Of a DNA stretch of 16,747 nucleotides, positions 3,498 through 16,475 are shown piece by piece (position 1 is the stretch's first letter; each line of letters begins with the position of its first letter). Location: NCBI GenBank assembly GCA_038740245.1, contig JAVYLZ010000002.1, positions 39,399 through 56,145 of the forward strand. The letters run 5' to 3'. Both the position numbers and the translations under genes were made by a program. The notes below the pieces were generated by a model. It saw nothing but the letters and a program-made list of their open reading frames with translations. It ran no database searches and was not told where the DNA came from. This DNA is from Candidatus Micrarchaeia archaeon (GTDB taxonomy: Archaea > Micrarchaeota > Micrarchaeia > CAILAH01).

Positions 3498-3604
3498 TTT
3501 TCAGAGCTTTTTCGCAAGCCTTTTTAGGCATCCCGAAAAAGGCTTATTGAACTGGGGATCTTTCCCGTGTCAGGGGAACGTCTTAACCACTCGACTACGG
3601 GTCC
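3484..3604 (-). tRNA. tRNA-Val(GAC) with a 48-nt non-canonical T-loop intron (predicted position 59/60, 3498-3545)
   Basis: Acceptor GGACCCG/CGGGTCC plus A73; anticodon arm TTCCC-CT-GAC-AC-GGGAA (anticodon 3569-3571); T-stem CCCAG/CTGGG interrupted by an insert. BHB/BHL-like motif: helix TTCA/TGAA with bulges ATA and AAT. Spliced length 73 nt; CCA not encoded. Confidence 0.92.
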
Positions 3605-3626
3605 ACGGGATAGTTAAATTTAGGAA

Positions 3627-3638
3627 TGCTTATATTGG
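3627..3638 (-). promoter_or_regulatory. Putative TATA-like box of tRNA-Val
   Basis: Minus-strand CCAATATAAGCA lies about 25-30 nt upstream of the tRNA 5' end, the usual archaeal spacing. Confidence 0.45.
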
Positions 3639-3664
3639 TTTTGAGGGGGGCCTTCAAAAGTAAA

Positions 3665-6985: not shown

Positions 6986-7579
6986 ATGAACCGCGGGTTC
7001 ATATTCGTGCTTGATGCGTTCATTGCGCTTGTTGTAATCATAGCTTTCGTTGGCACGCTAAGCCAGTTCTCGCGTGATTACTCATACCTTCAGGATGAGA
7101 CGCTTTACTCATACGGCAGGAGCATAATGAATGTCCTGCTTTACCACGAGATTACTGTAAATGACGCGGTTTACGGAGAGCGCACGATTCCGCTGATACA
7201 CGCGCTGCGCGAGAGCGAAGCCGAGGACATGTGGGAGGGGCAGATAGATCCGCTCATACCTCCGCAGATAGGGTATTCCATTGACTATTACACGGGTAGC
7301 AAGTGGAAGCCCTTTAGCGATAAGTACGTGCGCAAGAAGGAGGGCGCACGCAAGGCTGTGGCGGTTGTTTCAGCAGTGCCCGTGATTGTGAAGGGCGAGC
7401 GCATACAGTACCCATACACGTACGGCCGGTATTGCCCTCCAGGTGGCGGCACAAGTGCGATAAGCACGAATGTGTGCATGCTGCCGGCCGAGCTTTACAC
7501 GCCTGACGAGTTTGCAACCGGCGATTACAAGGACGCCCCCTACGGCGCCACGTTTGTGAGGGTGATGGTGGAAATATGA
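6986..7579 (+). CDS. Class III signal peptide (type IV pilin-like) protein
   Basis: MNRG/FIFVLDAFIALVVIIAF: basic residue plus Gly cleavage site, then a hydrophobic helix. First gene of a translationally coupled operon. Confidence 0.75.
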   Translation: MNRGFIFVLDAFIALVVIIAFVGTLSQFSRDYSYLQDETLYSYGRSIMNVLLYHEITVNDAVYGERTIPLIHALRESEAEDMWEGQIDPLIPPQIGYSIDYYTGSKWKPFSDKYVRKKEGARKAVAVVSAVPVIVKGERIQYPYTYGRYCPPGGGTSAISTNVCMLPAELYTPDEFATGDYKDAPYGATFVRVMVEI

Positions 7580-9168
7580 AGAGGGGGTTCGCACTCACAC
7601 TTTCAGTAATCATACTTCTCATGTTCCTGGTGCTCATACTTACAGTTGAGTCGCAGAGGATTGCGGTGGATGAGCAGACACGTTCAATGCACGCGCGGCT
7701 CACAGCCACATCGGCGCTTTTCTCGGACATTGATTCCCCGGCGCTTGATTACTCGCTTGAACGGCTTGCCAAGCGCTCGCTTTACGATATAGACATGGAG
7801 GTAATAAACGGGACAGGCAAGTACACAAAGGACTGGGCGGGCGAGAAGAAGATAGGCGGGCCGAACGGTCTTCTGTGCAAGAATTTCACGGGCAAGTTTA
7901 AGGGATACCTTGAATCGCTGAGGGCGCGTGCGCAGGATGCGGGCCTTGACCTTGCATATACCGAGCCCACCTGCGATTCATACCTGAGCGGGCCGTTCAC
8001 CGCCAACATTTCAACGGGCACGGTGATAACCGTTTCCGGGAACGGCGTGTACGCAAACAAGACGCTCGCGCGCGACATATCATTCTCAATTGAAGGGCTT
8101 TACGACCCCATGCTTGCACTTGAGTCCAGGGAGGAGTATGACAAGGGCAGGGTGCTGAGGCCAGTGATTGAGTATTCAGTCCCGCTCTGGAACGAAAGCG
8201 ATGATGAGTGGTCGCTTACGCCGGATGATACGGTGACGGCGCATTACGGGCAGGGCTGGGTGTACGGCGAGGTTATAACCTCTGCAGATGCACTTAAGGC
8301 AGATCCTTCAACATGGGGCCTCTACATACTTTTCGTACCCGGCTCTGACGCGCTTTCATTGTGGAGTGCGTCAAACCTGACAAAGTTCAGGGGCGTGATA
8401 CTCCGCGCGCAATCCGCACAGCCGACAGTGCAGAAAGACCAGATAGTCCCCGGCATTAAGAACGGGCTTGCGTGCGAGTTCCACATGGATATTGAAAGAT
8501 GGGATGAGGATGCAACGTGCATCGGGTGCGGCATATACATTTACGGAAAAGGCCTTACCCCCACAAGCGAATGCGAGGTTGACAAGAGCAAGATGACGCC
8601 GGGCATACTGTTTGAGCGTCACGGCAATAACTATTACTGGTACCAGCCGGGCACGGGCATACAGCTTGGCGGCGTGCCGTTTGCGGTGGTATCCGGCAGC
8701 TTAAGCACCGGCGATAAAGTGCTCATAACTGCACCTGCGGGTGCCGGCATACCGGTGCACAAGAATATGCATGTTTATGACATGGAGGAGTCACGCGGCG
8801 CGGTGCTATGCGGCAACTATTTCGCGCTCGGCAGCTATTATTCCGGCGGCGACCCATTGATTCCTGAACAGCTTTACGGACCGGACTTTTTCCAGAGGCT
8901 TGAGGGGGATATCAGCAGCACTTCCAAGTATGGCATACAGACCTTTGTGGTGGGCAACTGGGCCAAAAAGGAATATTCAAAGCTTGACTGGCAGTATTAC
9001 GGCAAAAAAGAAGGCATTCCCGTTAAGGGCATGCCTTCCTGCCTTGATGAGAAGATGTGCACTGAGCGTGATGACGACCAGATATACATCGGCAGGTTCA
9101 GGATAAATGATGATGATAGCGACCTGCTGGACGCATACGGCTTCAGCGATATATTATACGAGGAGTGA
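7576..9168 (+). CDS. Large (530 aa) pilin-like, putative adhesin with class III signal peptide
   Basis: MKRG/FALTLSVIILLMFLVLIL, followed by a long Gly/Tyr/Cys-rich predicted extracellular region. ATGA overlap with the upstream gene. Confidence 0.72.
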   Translation: MKRGFALTLSVIILLMFLVLILTVESQRIAVDEQTRSMHARLTATSALFSDIDSPALDYSLERLAKRSLYDIDMEVINGTGKYTKDWAGEKKIGGPNGLLCKNFTGKFKGYLESLRARAQDAGLDLAYTEPTCDSYLSGPFTANISTGTVITVSGNGVYANKTLARDISFSIEGLYDPMLALESREEYDKGRVLRPVIEYSVPLWNESDDEWSLTPDDTVTAHYGQGWVYGEVITSADALKADPSTWGLYILFVPGSDALSLWSASNLTKFRGVILRAQSAQPTVQKDQIVPGIKNGLACEFHMDIERWDEDATCIGCGIYIYGKGLTPTSECEVDKSKMTPGILFERHGNNYYWYQPGTGIQLGGVPFAVVSGSLSTGDKVLITAPAGAGIPVHKNMHVYDMEESRGAVLCGNYFALGSYYSGGDPLIPEQLYGPDFFQRLEGDISSTSKYGIQTFVVGNWAKKEYSKLDWQYYGKKEGIPVKGMPSCLDEKMCTERDDDQIYIGRFRINDDDSDLLDAYGFSDILYEE

Positions 9169-9638
9169 GATGGATGAATGCTGGCGAGCACGGGCAATGG
9201 GGGGCGATGCAGCCGTACCCCAACCATTTGCGCGGGCAGTCAAGCGTTGAGTTCCTTGCCGTAGTTGCACTGCTCCTGCTGCTTGTAGTGCCGGTATTCC
9301 TGTACTTTTACTGGGAGGCCCCGCAGCGGGACTATTATGCAAGTGCAGTGCAGGCCGAATCCTGCGCCGATGAGATAGCAAAATACGGCGAGCTTGTGGG
9401 TGTGCAGGGCAACGGCACAAAAGTATCACGCATAATAGTGGTCCCAAAGTATGCCGAGAGGATAGAGCTTAACGGCAGCCACGTTATGGTGCGGGTCTCC
9501 TATGCCGGCATGAGTTCGGACATAGTGCGTGTTGGCCCTGTAAACTTTAGCAGCACGCAGCTTAGCCTTTCAGGAGGCGCATACGCGCTGGTGTTTGAGA
9601 ACAGGGACGGTGTTGTTTATGTATCAGCAAGCCAGTAA
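9165..9638 (+). CDS. Class III signal peptide pilin-like protein
   Basis: LRG/QSSVEFLAVVALLLLLVV with Q+1 and E+5. Start is either GTG 9165 (GTGA overlap) or ATG 9207. Confidence 0.82.
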   Translation: MRWMNAGEHGQWGAMQPYPNHLRGQSSVEFLAVVALLLLLVVPVFLYFYWEAPQRDYYASAVQAESCADEIAKYGELVGVQGNGTKVSRIIVVPKYAERIELNGSHVMVRVSYAGMSSDIVRVGPVNFSSTQLSLSGGAYALVFENRDGVVYVSASQ

Positions 9639-10074
9639 AAGCACATTCATTAGGCCGCAGAAGCGCGGCCAGACCGCAGTTGAGTTCCTTTCCTACTTTA
9701 TGGTATTCCTGCTCATAGCGGCGGCATTCTCATCGTTTATGTTTTCAACATCAAACCAGGAGCTTTCAAGGCGCTCGCAGGAGCGGTTCAGGTCAATGGC
9801 GCTTTATGTTTCACAGGGGGTTGTTGATGCGGACAGGCTTGCCTCCAGCGCGGATTACGCGATGGTGAACATAACAATCCCGACCGTGGTACGCGGCACG
9901 CCAATAACTATTGAGGGCGACGGCGGACAGGGCATCATAGTTGCAAACACTACAGACCCAACGTACGGTGATGTAAGGTATTACATCCGCACAGGCAGGT
10001 TCACATCTGACGTATGCATGCTGGCGCAGGATACTGTAACTGTTGCAAGCGAGGGGAAGGGGGTATGTCCATGA
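9619..10074 (+). CDS. Class III signal peptide pilin-like protein
   Basis: KRG/QTAVEFLSYFMVFLLIAAAF with Q+1 and E+5. The ORF track starts at TTG 9595; the in-frame ATG at 9619 is preferred. Confidence 0.82.
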   Translation: MYQQASKSTFIRPQKRGQTAVEFLSYFMVFLLIAAAFSSFMFSTSNQELSRRSQERFRSMALYVSQGVVDADRLASSADYAMVNITIPTVVRGTPITIEGDGGQGIIVANTTDPTYGDVRYYIRTGRFTSDVCMLAQDTVTVASEGKGVCP

Positions 10075-10580
10075 TGCGGGCGGCTAACTGCAGGGCAGTT
10101 TGGGGCGCAATGCAGGCGGATGGTGCGCGCGGTTCCCATAGGGGCCAGGCGCTTTCATACGACGCAATAGGCGGCGTTGTGATATTCGCGATAGCGATAG
10201 GCATACTTTTTGCATACTGGTCCTCAATGAGCGCTTCATTCTCTGACGAGGATGCGATGCTGGTGCTTGAGGCCAATACTGCAATAGACCGCATCCTTTC
10301 AAAGGATATGCTGCTCTCAAATGAATATGAAATCAACAAGACCCGCCTCACATCCTGCGATATAGATAAAGATGCGGCGGGCCTTGCGCACGATTATTTC
10401 TTTGCGCTTGCCAAGCAGGAAGGTGGCACGCTGGTCCCCATAGGGCAACAGTGCAGCAGCAGGGATATTGATGGCAAGCCATATCCCCCGCAAAACCCGC
10501 GTAAAATTGTGCGCAGTGAGCGCATAGTGTTTTATGATGGCGAGCCCGCTAAGGCCGTGCTTGCGGTGTACATAGAGTAA
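10071..10580 (+). CDS. Class III signal peptide pilin-like protein
   Basis: HRG/QALSYDAIGGVVIFAIAIGILF. The ORF track starts at 10014; ATG 10071 (ATGA overlap with the previous stop) or ATG 10110 is more plausible. Confidence 0.78.
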   Translation: MMRAANCRAVWGAMQADGARGSHRGQALSYDAIGGVVIFAIAIGILFAYWSSMSASFSDEDAMLVLEANTAIDRILSKDMLLSNEYEINKTRLTSCDIDKDAAGLAHDYFFALAKQEGGTLVPIGQQCSSRDIDGKPYPPQNPRKIVRSERIVFYDGEPAKAVLAVYIE

Positions 10581-11018: not shown

Positions 11019-11939
11019 TCAAGCCCCCAGAATATGCACACGGTCTATGTCCACACGTTTCAGGAATACTGCGAAACAGCCGACTAAAAGCGAGGCGGGC
11101 ACCTTGGCCCACTGCAACTGCGGCGGCAGCACCAAGTATAGCATTGCCAGCGAGACAAGCATTGCAATGCCCGCAAGTGCATATGCCCGCCGCACCCACC
11201 CCTGCACAAGCAAGGTGATAATTGCGAGTCCCGGCAGGTAAATGCACATAAACGTTGCAAATGAATTGAGGACGAGCAGCGAGCCATAGTCCGCGAGCGT
11301 AACCCCGAACCCTCCACTTACTACAAATGCAAACGCAATAAATGCGATGCACACCAGCGTAAACACGGGCGCGCTGCGCGCAAAAGAGAGCATGCTCGCA
11401 ATGTCCCCCGTGCTTGCAGCCGCACCCGGCACTGTGATTGCCATAAGGTATACAAGGAGGAAGTCAAGCGGGCTGTCAAGCCTGAATATGTCCGCCATAA
11501 GCACAGCAAATTTGCCCACAAAGTTCTCATTAAGCGCGAACGCAAGTGGCTGGTAGCCGCCGGCAACCAGCGCAATTGCAAGAAAGAGGAGCGGCAGTGC
11601 AAGGCCCGGCCCGAAACCCATAACAAGCACGGACACGAACCCGAATATGTTCTTATCAAATGACACTGAGACGTGGCCCTCGCTTGCCCCAAGCAGCACA
11701 CCTCTCACGCGGCTTCCGCTCAGCACTGCGGGAATAAGATGGCCGAAGACCTCGTGCAGGAAGACGGCGGGCACCCCAAACAGGTTGCCTAAAAGCGGGA
11801 TTCTTGAGAGCCGCGCATGGTTGACGGATGCAATGCGCATTAGGAGATGCTGTGTGCCCGCGGCAATAACAAAGAGTGCGGCCAGCCGCACAAGCGATTC
11901 AATCACAGGGAACAACTCAGCACAAAATGATAAAAACAA
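11019..11939 (-). CDS. Intramembrane zinc metallopeptidase-like protein (M50/M50B-like)
   Basis: Polytopic membrane protein with FLHEVFGHLIPAVLSG, a later GFGP (equivalent to AGP) and ASTGD (candidate third ligand Asp). The start may be GTG 11906. Confidence 0.65.
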   Translation of the reverse strand: MFLSFCAELFPVIESLVRLAALFVIAAGTQHLLMRIASVNHARLSRIPLLGNLFGVPAVFLHEVFGHLIPAVLSGSRVRGVLLGASEGHVSVSFDKNIFGFVSVLVMGFGPGLALPLLFLAIALVAGGYQPLAFALNENFVGKFAVLMADIFRLDSPLDFLLVYLMAITVPGAAASTGDIASMLSFARSAPVFTLVCIAFIAFAFVVSGGFGVTLADYGSLLVLNSFATFMCIYLPGLAIITLLVQGWVRRAYALAGIAMLVSLAMLYLVLPPQLQWAKVPASLLVGCFAVFLKRVDIDRVHILGA

Positions 11940-12958: not shown

Positions 12959-14449
12959 ATGGGGCAACTTAAGGGGCTGAACCCAGAGCTGCTTAGGAAG
13001 GACGTGGAGCGCGCTAAGGACATATTCCATAAAAGGAGCTTTTCAAGGGTGCTTGTTGACCACCATCTTAACCTGTATTTCACGCTCAGCTCTATGCTCA
13101 ACCACGTTTCATTAAACAGGGATGCAGGAAGGGACAGCAGGGCGCTCCTGAACCTTGCACTTTACCACAACAATTTCCATCCCAAGTCACTGCCGGCCGA
13201 GCTGAGGCCCGACTTATCGGAGCTGCTCCAGCAGTTCCTTGAGCTTAAGAAAGTGGATGAGAACTACCACACCAGCGTGTCCAAGTACGCAGATTACATT
13301 TCCAATAACCTCCCGCTGTTCATTTTCAGGATGATTGACCTCTCGCTGCTGCCGCTTAACAGGGATGTAATGGTAAGGGTGTTTGGGTACAACAGCTCAA
13401 AGGTTGACAGGGAGATTGAAAATATCGCGCACGCAATGTTTTACATATATGCACCCGTTGCAGACATATTCAAGCAGGCACAGCTGTGCGCGCGCCTGAA
13501 GGACAATTCCACAGAAGTCCTTTACCCGTTATTCCATTCCGAAATAAAGAAGTTTATGGCTGAGAATATTCAGAACCTAATGGATTCACAGCGCGCACTT
13601 TCAATAAAGCTTTCGGATATCATAATGGGGGCGTCGCTTTTTGACGGTGCCTCCTTTGTGGAAATCGGAGACGGCGAGCACCCGCACCTGAAAAGCCGTA
13701 TAAAGTCAACGGGCAGCATAGTTGCAAAAATGATAAGCCGCGATATGAAGCCAAGCGACGTCCGCGAGCTGCACGACCTTGTCGCATTCACAGTTGTCAC
13801 AAAGGACAGTGAGAGCTCGCAGAAGTTTGTTGAGCACCTTAAGGTGAACCTTGATTTGCCGAACTCTGCGATTGAGGACTTTCTGGACAGGCCGCGCAAG
13901 AACGGTTACCGCGCAATACACGTTGATGTGCCGTTCAACGGATTTTCAATAGAGGTGCAAATCCGCACAGAGGATGTGCACAGGGAATGCGAGGATGTGA
14001 ACGGTACGCTTGCGCACGGCATATACAAGAGCGGCCAGCTTCCGCCCTCAATACAGGAAAGGCTTTCAACAAGCAAGGATTTCATAAAGGAAGCATCGCC
14101 AGATCAAATAAAGCAGCGCGTGTTGCAGGAGAACCAGCCGCGCATATCGGTTTATGTAACGGTAGGGCAGAAGCGCAAGCTTATTGATTTGCCCCTCGGA
14201 GCGATTATGTTTGACTTGCTGGCGCAGGCTGTGCCAAACCCCCAGTCATATTGCGTGTGCTCGGCTGATTCCCCGGATAATAAGTATTCTGCGCTTGCGC
14301 TGGTCTCTCCGTCCAAGGAATACATAATCGTGGACTCAACGAACCCCCCGTCATGGCAGACCATAAAATCCATTGTGCCATCATGCAGGACAGATGAGGC
14401 AAGGATAGCGCTGCGCAAGCTCATCCGCGAAAAAAGGGATTGGGCCTGA
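12959..14449 (+). CDS. RelA/SpoT homologue (RSH): degenerate hydrolase region, (p)ppNpp synthetase domain, TGS-like domain and start of the helical domain
   Basis: SYNTH motifs SRIKSTGSIVAK, HDLVAF, EDFLDRPRKNGYRAIH, IEVQIRT and AHGIYK. Upstream IYAPVADIF...LKD...LYP resembles the long-RSH HD/linker. Downstream VYV...LPLGAIMFD (TGS) and RTDEARIALRK (helical domain). Confidence 0.88.
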   Translation: MGQLKGLNPELLRKDVERAKDIFHKRSFSRVLVDHHLNLYFTLSSMLNHVSLNRDAGRDSRALLNLALYHNNFHPKSLPAELRPDLSELLQQFLELKKVDENYHTSVSKYADYISNNLPLFIFRMIDLSLLPLNRDVMVRVFGYNSSKVDREIENIAHAMFYIYAPVADIFKQAQLCARLKDNSTEVLYPLFHSEIKKFMAENIQNLMDSQRALSIKLSDIIMGASLFDGASFVEIGDGEHPHLKSRIKSTGSIVAKMISRDMKPSDVRELHDLVAFTVVTKDSESSQKFVEHLKVNLDLPNSAIEDFLDRPRKNGYRAIHVDVPFNGFSIEVQIRTEDVHRECEDVNGTLAHGIYKSGQLPPSIQERLSTSKDFIKEASPDQIKQRVLQENQPRISVYVTVGQKRKLIDLPLGAIMFDLLAQAVPNPQSYCVCSADSPDNKYSALALVSPSKEYIIVDSTNPPSWQTIKSIVPSCRTDEARIALRKLIREKRDWA

Positions 14450-14650: not shown

Positions 14651-15574
14651 ATGGAAACCATACAGGGGTTTGACCTTGACAAGGTAAACTCATTTCCGGA
14701 GCTGCTGAAGGCATATTCAACACTGGGCATACAGGCATCAAACCTTTCGCTTGCAGATGAGATCCTCTGGGAGATGGTCAGGGACAAGCACAACACCATG
14801 TTTTTTGCGTTCACATCAAACGTGGCAAGCTCAGGCATGCGCGAGATTGCAGCCCAGTTCATACGCGACGCGCGCCCAAAGGTTATAATCACGACGGCCG
14901 GCGCAATTGAGGAGGACATAATGAAATCGCTGGGCGGCTTTTATTTGGGCTCATTTTATGTGAATGACAGCGAGCTCAGGGAACAAGGCATAAACCGCAT
15001 AGGCAACATATTCGTCCCGAGCGAGAGGTACGAGCAGCTTGAGGCGTACGTGAAACCCGTGCTCAAGCATCTTGACAATGGCACGCCCGTTTCCGTAAGC
15101 CAGCTCATAACAGGGCTTTCGCGCCCAATAAAGGACGAGGGCTCATTCCTGAAGGCGGCCCGTGACTCGGGTGCGCGGGTTTTTTGCCCCGCCATAACGG
15201 ACGGCGCGCTTGGGATGCAGCTGTATTTTTACAGGCAGCAGCACAGAAATTTCGTGCTTGACCAGCTCGCGGACATGAATGAGCTCGCACAAATAACGCT
15301 TAATGCCGAGAGGACCGGTGCGCTCATAATAGGCGGCGGCGTGGCCAAGCATTACACAATAGGAGTTAACCTGATGCGGGAGGGCCTTGACAGGGCCATA
15401 TACATCTCAACCGCACAGGAGCATGACGCATCGCTCAGCGGCGCATACCCGCGCGAAGCGGTGAGCTGGGGCAAAATCAAGTCATCCTCGCGGCACGTGC
15501 TCGTGAATGACGAGGCCTCAATCTCGTTCCCGCTGCTTGCACTTTCACTGCACCAGAAGCTCAGGGGCAAGTGA
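14651..15574 (+). CDS. dys: Deoxyhypusine synthase
   Basis: FTSNVASSGMRE, TTAGAIEED, GINRIGNI, CPAITDG, GGGVAKH, DASLSGA and EAVSWGKI (catalytic Lys). Confidence 0.96.
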   Translation: METIQGFDLDKVNSFPELLKAYSTLGIQASNLSLADEILWEMVRDKHNTMFFAFTSNVASSGMREIAAQFIRDARPKVIITTAGAIEEDIMKSLGGFYLGSFYVNDSELREQGINRIGNIFVPSERYEQLEAYVKPVLKHLDNGTPVSVSQLITGLSRPIKDEGSFLKAARDSGARVFCPAITDGALGMQLYFYRQQHRNFVLDQLADMNELAQITLNAERTGALIIGGGVAKHYTIGVNLMREGLDRAIYISTAQEHDASLSGAYPREAVSWGKIKSSSRHVLVNDEASISFPLLALSLHQKLRGK

Positions 15575-15575
15575 T

Positions 15576-16067
15576 ATGATGGCCTGTGGCATAAACCAAC
15601 CCCCTACTAACAGAACCGCCTTTCCGTTATCCCCCGCACTTTTCCTGATTGTGCTTATGCTCCTGCTGTGGGCACCTGCATTGTTTGCGCACAGGGGGCT
15701 CGGCCTGAAGGTTGAGTATGAGATCGGCCGCACGCTTGTTGCGCAGAACGTAAGCTGCGAAAACCTCTCGGATTTTGAGCTTGAGATGATAGGCGACTAT
15801 TATCTTGAAACCAAGTATCCCGGCAGGTACCACGAGATGATAGACAGCGGGATGGGCTCGCGCACCGAGGAGGAAATAAACCAGTTCCACAGGGACATTG
15901 CGTATGAATACTACTGCAGGTACCGGCCGGCCAACAAGGAAAAGATTCAGCTCATTGATTACACGTATATGGGCCTGCAGCTGCTCCAGCTGCTTGTGGT
16001 GCTCGGTATACTCTACCTGATCTACAAGATAGTTTCAGAGATAAGGTCTGAATTACGGCAGAAATAA
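15576..16067 (+). CDS. Membrane-anchored exported hypothetical protein with His/Met/Cys residues
   Basis: ATG 15576, right after the dys stop, is preferred over 15507. Signal peptide ending ALFA-H, a domain with C...HEM...H...C, and a C-terminal TM helix followed by a charged tail. Confidence 0.72.
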   Translation: MMACGINQPPTNRTAFPLSPALFLIVLMLLLWAPALFAHRGLGLKVEYEIGRTLVAQNVSCENLSDFELEMIGDYYLETKYPGRYHEMIDSGMGSRTEEEINQFHRDIAYEYYCRYRPANKEKIQLIDYTYMGLQLLQLLVVLGILYLIYKIVSEIRSELRQK

Positions 16068-16074
16068 GGAAAAA

Positions 16075-16362
16075 TTATTTTATGTAAGGGGTCAGGATTT
16101 TTATCGCGCGGGTGATGGCGTTCTTGACCTCTTCCTCGCTTTTACCGCCCGTGCATATGATTTTTCCATTCTTGAAGAGGAGTAGCGAAGCCTTCGGGTT
16201 TTTCAGCTTCAGGATAGCGCCCGGGAATTGCTCGGGCTCATACTCAACATCCTCAACTTCCATCGCAATGGAGTACAAATCAAGCTCAACATTCAAGCTG
16301 GCGGAAGCAACGATATTTTCAATCCTGAATTTCGGCTGGGGTATTTTCTTGACTTTGGGCAT
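16075..16362 (-). CDS. tbp: Single-repeat (half-size, 95 aa) TATA-box binding protein
   Basis: IENIVAS, LDL, EYEPEQFPG and LLFKNGKIICTGGKS make up one complete TBP repeat. GGGTGA SD upstream and a T-tract immediately after the stop. Confidence 0.92.
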   Translation of the reverse strand: MPKVKKIPQPKFRIENIVASASLNVELDLYSIAMEVEDVEYEPEQFPGAILKLKNPKASLLLFKNGKIICTGGKSEEEVKNAITRAIKILTPYIK

Positions 16363-16475
16363 AGTTTCACCCTATTTTTAAACTGACGTAAAGAAATAGC
16401 CGCATAACTTTAAAAAGGTATTCAGCCCAAAACTAACCTGTCCTAAGCGAGATTACTTCGTAAAAGGCTGATAGC

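Follow-up and report, generated by a model that had tools for sequence, protein, structure and literature searches.

The window, the whole 16,747-nt stretch of DNA that was analysed, carries close to its end a gene for a single-repeat TATA-binding protein (TBP). The gene occupies positions 16075–16362 on the minus strand and encodes a 95-aa protein, P0001, identified by translation, Pfam, tblastn, a family HMM, AlphaFold2 and Foldseek. Read directly from the letters, a Shine-Dalgarno-like GGGTGA (16367–16372, minus strand) stands 4 nt ahead of the ATG, and a T5 tract (16070–16074, minus strand) that may be terminator-like follows immediately 3' of the TAA. A candidate promoter for the TBP gene spans 16409–16424 on the minus strand, where a BRE-like TGAATA is followed after 2 nt by the T/A box TTTTTAAA (TTTAAAAA on the plus strand). 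On the plus strand, the divergent gene for ribosomal protein eL21 (PF01157; 16476–16745) starts 113 nt from the TBP gene and reaches the window edge, and a convergent ORF at 15507–16067, with two hydrophobic stretches and no Pfam match (ORF list and Pfam search), stops 7 nt from the TBP stop. Because that ORF ends so near, there is no space for a second repeat downstream, and because the stop-to-stop frame of the TBP gene is 98 aa, none is possible within it. An earlier note on this DNA had described a 95-aa gene with exactly one TBP repeat, its own Shine-Dalgarno sequence, a T-tract past the stop and no room for a second repeat, and translation, the Pfam match and the coordinates bear out each of these readings. 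Elsewhere in the window, the ORF at 12959–14449 (plus strand) encodes 496 aa that include a RelA/SpoT synthetase-like region (PF04607, E 4e-18), here in an archaeal genome, and a run of ORFs (6986–10580, plus strand) has N-terminal RG(Q/F)-hydrophobic starts that resemble archaeal pilin-like signal peptides.

P0001 has the sequence and the fold of a TBP, once over. Pfam finds a single PF00352 repeat (residues 11–91, model positions 1–83 of 85, E 2e-30) scoring 104.9 bits against a cut-off of 22.9, and the AlphaFold2 model is one TBP lobe with the helix-grip fold (pLDDT 85), which Foldseek matches to 2Z8U (rmsd 1.1 Å over 79 columns, E 4e-8) and for which the significant matches are TBP chains. 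Comparison with the M. jannaschii TBP gives an E value of 6.5e-44. The repeat and fold are common to P0001 and the canonical archaeal TBPs of M. jannaschii (2Z8U), S. acidocaldarius (1MP9) and P. woesei (1AIS, 1PCZ, 1D3U), with which P0001 also aligns at the FPG and LLF phenylalanines, the N16 and T71 positions and the YEPE stirrup. We take F46 and F63 to be the wedging phenylalanine pair, and N16 and T71 the DNA-face residues, that mark a canonical TBP. The two stirrup glutamates described as binding TFB (C.L3.2 and C.L3.4; PMC7221094) probably correspond to E42 and E44, judging from the YEPE motif.

The departure from canonical TBP lies in the number of repeats. Whereas canonical proteins hold two in a chain of about 180 aa, P0001 holds one in its 98-aa frame, so that any saddle would be intermolecular and exactly symmetric; it also carries an FKNGK signature, and its repeat type stands apart from both the canonical N and the canonical C repeat. 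Because P0001 appears to work in a TBP-like manner but falls outside the two-repeat definition, we class it as a TBP variant. Its scores against the two repeats of three solved archaeal TBPs are about equal (76.2/75.2, 76.3/66.6 and 62.1/68.3 bits). The residues N16, F46, F63 and T71 and the motif EYEPEQFPG, all singled out by the earlier note, are present. Its further suggestion of mixed repeat-1 and repeat-2 features stands only insofar as EYEPEQFPG is there; the description of P0001 as a mosaic of repeat-1 and repeat-2 motifs was dropped, because that motif occurs in both repeats of M. jannaschii TBP and is not distinctive.

These residues have been conserved across the half-type TBPs. Among 119 distinct single-repeat cores, N16, F46, P47, G48 and F63 never vary, while 118 of the cores retain E42 and E44 and 108 retain T71. 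Removed before counting were duplicates (L136, L137, L139), fragments or contig-edge frames (L071, L093, L135, L156) and cores that were out of register or differed from 77 aa in length. Six family-level genes give pN/pS values of 0.02–0.09 in 15/15 pairs, at a pS of 0.62–0.96 that is near saturation. Close relatives thus carry halves under strong purifying selection, contrary to the scenario, entertained in the earlier note, of full-length relatives and relaxed selection. The position of the gene is conserved as well: a divergent eL21 gene lies within 700 nt upstream at 106 of 143 half loci and 65 of 70 two-repeat loci (tallied without de-duplication, leaving out loci with under 600 nt upstream), and many of the half loci without eL21 are second paralogues. 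Since divergent eL21 flanks both kinds of gene, the half gene occupies the TBP position of its fused relatives.

P0001 is also the only TBP that we find in its genome (G000), an assembly of 688 kb in 41 contigs that is 81% complete; the placement of the lineage in Micrarchaeota comes from named relatives. Pfam, tblastn and the family HMM each return one match above noise, the P0001 gene, and two weak matches considered as a second TBP (13.4 bits on contig C4 and 11.0 bits on C28) fell under the cut-off. The genome search proposed in the earlier note therefore yielded neither a full-length TBP nor a second half. Because the genome is 81% complete, a TBP gene could have been missed if G000 alone is considered, and P0001 might then be an accessory or split TBP that regulates a full TBP, or heterodimerises with a partner half, encoded in the missing fifth. 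The single-repeat TBPs described in PMC3597702 do coexist with full TBPs, and families f3 and f4 of the phylum carry two diverged half paralogues that could pair. However, four other genomes of the same family (G043, G030, G170 and G238, 89–93% complete) likewise have one repeat each, in frames of 100–105 aa, the single-contig genomes G038 and G042 each contain one half as their only TBP match, and the P0001 gene sits at the eL21-linked TBP position. We regard an accessory or split role as very improbable. For the family of P0001 in particular, a heterodimer with a second half and a regulator of a full-length TBP, both raised in the earlier note, are unlikely, since no second half and no full-length TBP was found there. 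The half-TBP gene is real and conserved and most likely encodes the working TBP of the organism, and its presence as a sole copy with pN/pS under 0.09 suggests that it is essential.

Archaeal promoters present a BRE followed by a TATA box, and the orientation of transcription is set by the BRE. Of the genome's 301 free upstream regions, 45 contain the motif TTTATA, where mononucleotide shuffles predict 10.7, and a TTTAAAAA(G/T)GTATT-like box recurs in intergenic regions of family relatives. In a seeded motif search upstream of eL21, TATA-like boxes appeared as TTTATATA (29/78) and TTTATAAA (15/78) at half loci and as TTTAAAAA (23/57) and TTTATAAA (11/57) at two-repeat loci, among which kin are not independent. 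The same search of 78 and 57 loci found no gain of palindromy in the boxes of half lineages, which keep ordinary TATA boxes upstream of eL21 with an A-rich stretch ahead. A single central T/A box (16409–16416) lies between the divergent TBP and eL21 genes of the window and could serve both directions; boxes like it are common also in two-repeat relatives and are not specific to halves. Of the 13 tRNA genes called in the genome only 3 lack introns, too few for a comparison of tRNA promoters, and near-identical GC-rich inverted-repeat elements stand directly upstream of two predicted tRNA genes (G000:C8, about 3600–3663; C11, about 11431–11500). As in the context of a canonical TBP, TATA-like motifs are accompanied by TFB genes: the genome has two, on contigs C4 and C27, whose translations retain RG(K/R), PRT and a C-terminal EVTIRNR helix, elements of a type that contacts TBP and the BRE (in part PMC7221094).

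Structure prediction points to a homodimer. A two-copy fold of P0001 from a 94-row alignment scored 0.67, against 0.01 for the best of three controls; the mark set for a dimer is attained by 20 of 30 homodimers with solved structures and by 1 of 23 single chains. The dimer runs share at least 93% of contacts, with pLDDT at least 87. In the predicted interface (β1–β1'), strand 11–21 runs antiparallel to itself with the dyad at I17, and helix 76–94 contributes; we take this interface to be the S1–S1' join of the TBP saddle. Because S1–S1' pairing is the known intrachain fold, the passing score may reflect memory of solved TBPs. A homodimer prediction, which the earlier note had proposed with DNA and TFB, thus gave saddle-like pairing for the protein by itself, and the leading idea of the note, a homodimer forming a symmetric saddle, is supported by the sole half, its eL21-linked TBP position and the predicted dimer. 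In the mechanism that we propose, two copies of P0001 would join by their first strands, giving a saddle of two-fold symmetry that binds TATA boxes and recruits TFB. The four wedging phenylalanines would be F46 and F63 from each subunit, E42 and E44 would form a TFB site on each lobe, and it would be TFB, through its reading of the BRE, and not TBP that determines direction.

Alternatively, P0001 may be the sole TBP and yet work without a classical saddle, as a monomer or weak dimer held on DNA by TFB or another factor. That the homodimer is a prediction whose score may be memory is compatible with this idea, as is the finding that TBP lobes act singly in RNase HIII (PMC7221094). It is harder to reconcile with the predicted dimer strand being among the most conserved parts of the protein, E15–S20 being invariant in 96/96 aligned halves, with the persistence of the eight-bp TATA-like boxes upstream of eL21 in half lineages, or with the existence of natural head-to-tail fusions of P0001. 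We therefore think a saddle-free TBP very unlikely and favour the homodimeric saddle.

The half type is widespread in the phylum. Among 401 genomes, including two unpublished (G198, G029), 390 had a match and 120 had exactly one; six of the 120, which may be fragments, come from families in which two matches are the rule. One genome of the family of P0001 (G335) gave no TBP match, and one match was found in every matching genome of families f10 (6), f11 (19), f13 (3), f14 (7) and f17 (4). To place double matches, 73 chosen genomes were searched and their loci fetched, and two matches often proved to be two unlinked half genes, as in 11/11 f3 genomes searched and most of 18 f4 genomes. Seven of nine single-contig genomes were examined, and six of these have no two-repeat TBP: G038 and G042 carry one half each, and G016, G033, G108 and G194 carry two unlinked halves each. 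In the seventh, G302, the TBP gene contains two repeats. Such two-repeat genes occurred in families f2, f5, f6, f8, f9, f12, f18, f20, f22, f32 and f35, which account for 136 of the 401 genomes; extrapolated from the members examined, about two-thirds of the genomes of the phylum belong to half-type families. G141 and G027, from half-type families, additionally carry a canonical-type two-repeat TBP away from eL21, through either contamination or transfer. In a second phylum (31 genomes, reached through an Iainarchaeum-labelled record), most matches lie in frames of 88–145 aa, and fused repeats occur in G410, G411, G412 and G413. G434, tried as a true member of Iainarchaeota, fell within the phylum of P0001. 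Half-TBP genes are often annotated "hypothetical protein".

Several variations on the half type deserve mention in their own right. In f3 and f4 (L176–L195, L225–L230), each genome has two unlinked half-TBP paralogues about 50–60% identical to P0001, one at the eL21 locus and the other in a distinct clade (SH-aLRT 100), and the two could heterodimerise. At L048:2955–4560, two half-TBP genes with 99% DNA identity lie 1.3 kb apart, possibly a pre-fusion intermediate. There are also TBP-like proteins with three or four repeats (G410:C8:9538–10695, a 726-aa frame with four repeats, and P0128, P0242 and P0243), and several TBPs with the repeat type of P0001 bear long Lys/Ala-rich N- or C-terminal tails (P0091, P0342, P0388, P0414).

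The two-repeat relatives of P0001 resemble doubled halves. Its 120 best longer homologues contain two or three repeats that are 62–94% identical within a chain (median 71); for 139 distant two-repeat TBPs drawn from a 50%-identity library, the median is 39%. The likeness of the 120 homologues to P0001 itself is inflated, because they were chosen as its best matches. P0122, on one 1,119-bp contig, consists of two copies 99% and 95% identical to P0001, joined tail to head, with repeats 94% identical to each other, and P0123–P0127 reach 81–90% internal identity. Together with P0198 and P0222/P0225, these proteins (81–94% internal identity) nest among halves of different lineages and look like recent independent fusions. 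Identical DNA runs of at least 40 nt join the repeats of one gene in 29 of 61 pairs, the longest being 98 nt (canonical-type L003 and L224 were left out of this test only). Such runs occur within genes in 8/20 pairs at 70–75% identity, 11/15 at 75–80% and 8/8 at 80–90%, and in 2/7 and 0/11 pairs at lower identity; between genes, the corresponding frequencies in the three upper classes are 0.14%, 0.36% and 1.3%. The tracts are thus gene-conversion-like. The two-repeat TBPs of Micrarchaeota and of Diapherotrites-labelled records (e.g. P0122–P0127, L196–L223, P0015/P0414) have the repeat type of P0001 and, at the loci tested, its eL21 linkage as well; they differ in being two or three fused copies with conversion-like tracts.

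Phylogeny against separate N and C repeats, another check that the earlier note had suggested, sets the half type apart from both. In quick trees with AU tests, built on 77 columns, every half falls on one side against the canonical repeats, together with the two repeats of each fused gene of the phylum (support 89 in a quick C20 tree of 119 rows, SH-aLRT 97.5 in a 64-row tree), and P0001 clusters at 98 with the repeats of P0122 and P0123, both from each protein. The AU test rejects a division into all N and all C repeats (p-AU 1.4e-49) and also one into ingroup N and ingroup C (4e-76), and monophyly of the canonical N repeats is compatible with the data (p 0.635). By the first of these tests, the two-repeat TBPs of the phylum are not canonical N+C pairs. 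The Diapherotrites comparison, comprising one labelled protein and its unlabelled relatives, forms an N+C clade of its own (100), while the sequence of P0018, a TBP labelled Aenigmatarchaeota, is canonical in appearance. The pattern of the trees agrees with repeated duplication-fusion as well as with gene conversion.

We consider it likely, from distribution and parsimony, that the half state is derived and has been re-fused repeatedly rather than being a relic, with the root and the direction of change left unfixed because the trees have 77 columns and canonical-N monophyly is not rejected. An ancestor of Micrarchaeota and neighbouring phyla may have cut a canonical TBP to one repeat type, by repeat loss or by conversion and then deletion, and several lineages would later have rebuilt two-repeat genes through tandem duplication and fusion. 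The half-TBP could instead descend directly, never fused, from the TBP ancestor that preceded duplication, an explanation that concerns origin only and is compatible with a homodimer. P0001 indeed resembles canonical N and C repeats to about the same degree, and a tree with a canonical N clade and a canonical C clade beside the half type is not rejected. Direct survival would, however, require fusion to have been repeated or transferred in all other archaea and eukaryotes, given the canonical look of P0018; furthermore, in the quick C20 tree the half type sides with the canonical N repeats (SH-aLRT 89, not starred), and conversion tracts offer an easy path from two repeats to one. The link to a primordial single-repeat ancestor is by likeness only, and we hold direct survival to be a slim prospect beside a derived half state.

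The last alternative is an assembly collapse, in which gene conversion would have left the true gene with two nearly identical repeats that short-read assemblers then merged into one. Such a collapse is a serious rival because the repeats of two-repeat genes share long identical DNA runs, and some halves in short-read assemblies could be collapses because two-repeat relatives carry identical tracts of up to 98 nt, a ceiling that could itself reflect assembler word length. P0122, with its 94% internal identity, is moreover a two-repeat form very near P0001. Logan contigs from six runs, five of them with contigs on this stretch, show no repeat joint, and none of the aligned contigs bridges the whole gene. 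One contig of run X2 has a loose end at 16112, where 240 nt with one difference give way to codons of L034 (20/20 bases), which fits a chimera or recombinant and not a linker. In the 90% cluster of P0001, 11/11 members are 94–98 aa long, in assemblies from NCBI, JGI, Logan and ENA and on contigs of up to 216,714 bp. Collapse would also require separate homogenisation and merging in each of six family-level relatives whose synonymous sites are nearly saturated (pS 0.62–0.96), is at odds with six single-contig genomes that have halves only, and did not befall the two 99% identical half genes of L048, assembled as two. We hold it to be very improbable, unlikely for the lineage and excluded less strongly for the contig of P0001 itself.

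Our findings can be set beside what is known of single-repeat TBPs. A 100-aa ORF on pNRC100 (L236:30044–30346), which we take to be TbpA, also encodes one free-standing repeat and keeps TBP-like residues; over 76 aa it shares 43% identity with P0001. Full two-repeat TBPs are encoded on the same plasmid, and the ORF matches the C repeat of one of them at 58% identity. P0001, by contrast, is the sole TBP found, at a core locus, with no second TBP match in G000 or the four family relatives. Halobacterial TbpA is described as single-domain and non-essential (Brindefalk et al. 2013, PMC3597702). The monopartite TBP-domain proteins of Thermococcales (e.g. NP_578195) likewise have a single TBP domain; they are 82–136 aa long and strongly diverged and cluster apart from TBP, and each listed genome also holds a TBP of 174–192 aa (PMC3597702). 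Going by that description, P0001 differs in lying near true TBPs and in replacing them, having neither the strong divergence nor a full TBP in its genome. Single-lobe versions of TBP receive one sentence in the part of Ravarani et al. 2020 (PMC7221094) that concerns them, the relevant parts of PMC8407392 and PMC8204110 say of DPANN that they have TBP and no more, and the term "TBP" is absent from PMC12892359 and PMC13257274. In literature other than subscription journals and supplements, we found no account of a DPANN archaeon whose only TBP has a single repeat. Published single-repeat TBPs are extras beside a full TBP, and a half-TBP that stands by itself, as sequence searches indicate here, appears to be new.

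Taken together, we put at roughly three in four the probability that the only TBP found is a single repeat which likely forms a homodimeric β1–β1' saddle for TATA and TFB, the half state being derived and later re-fused. With less assurance, we lean towards the broader proposal that in most Micrarchaeota, and in a small phylum close to them, all transcription begins on an obligate homodimer of 90–120-aa half-TBPs, a fully symmetric saddle with two TFB sites that would be oriented only by BRE and TFB; TBP duplication-fusion would have been replayed several times, and where a family has two paralogues, homo- and heterodimers may occur side by side as promoter-selective TBPs.

Archaea and eukaryotes need TBP for transcription, and the protein is described as one chain of two pseudo-symmetric lobes, thought to have arisen when a single lobe was duplicated and fused (PMC7221094, PMC3597702). 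A lineage with a single lobe as its only TBP would be a natural test system for this duplication-fusion model. The homodimer hypothesis is directly testable with an 11-kDa protein, and the half-TBP would open to experiment the function of a perfectly symmetric saddle, the direction of transcription without TBP asymmetry, the loading of two TFBs per TATA box and the benefit of fusion. The natural tandem doubles, with internal identities from 94% to about 60% or lower, may serve as a time series of regained asymmetry, and in the Micrarchaeota clade high similarity between TBP repeats would be no sign of antiquity.
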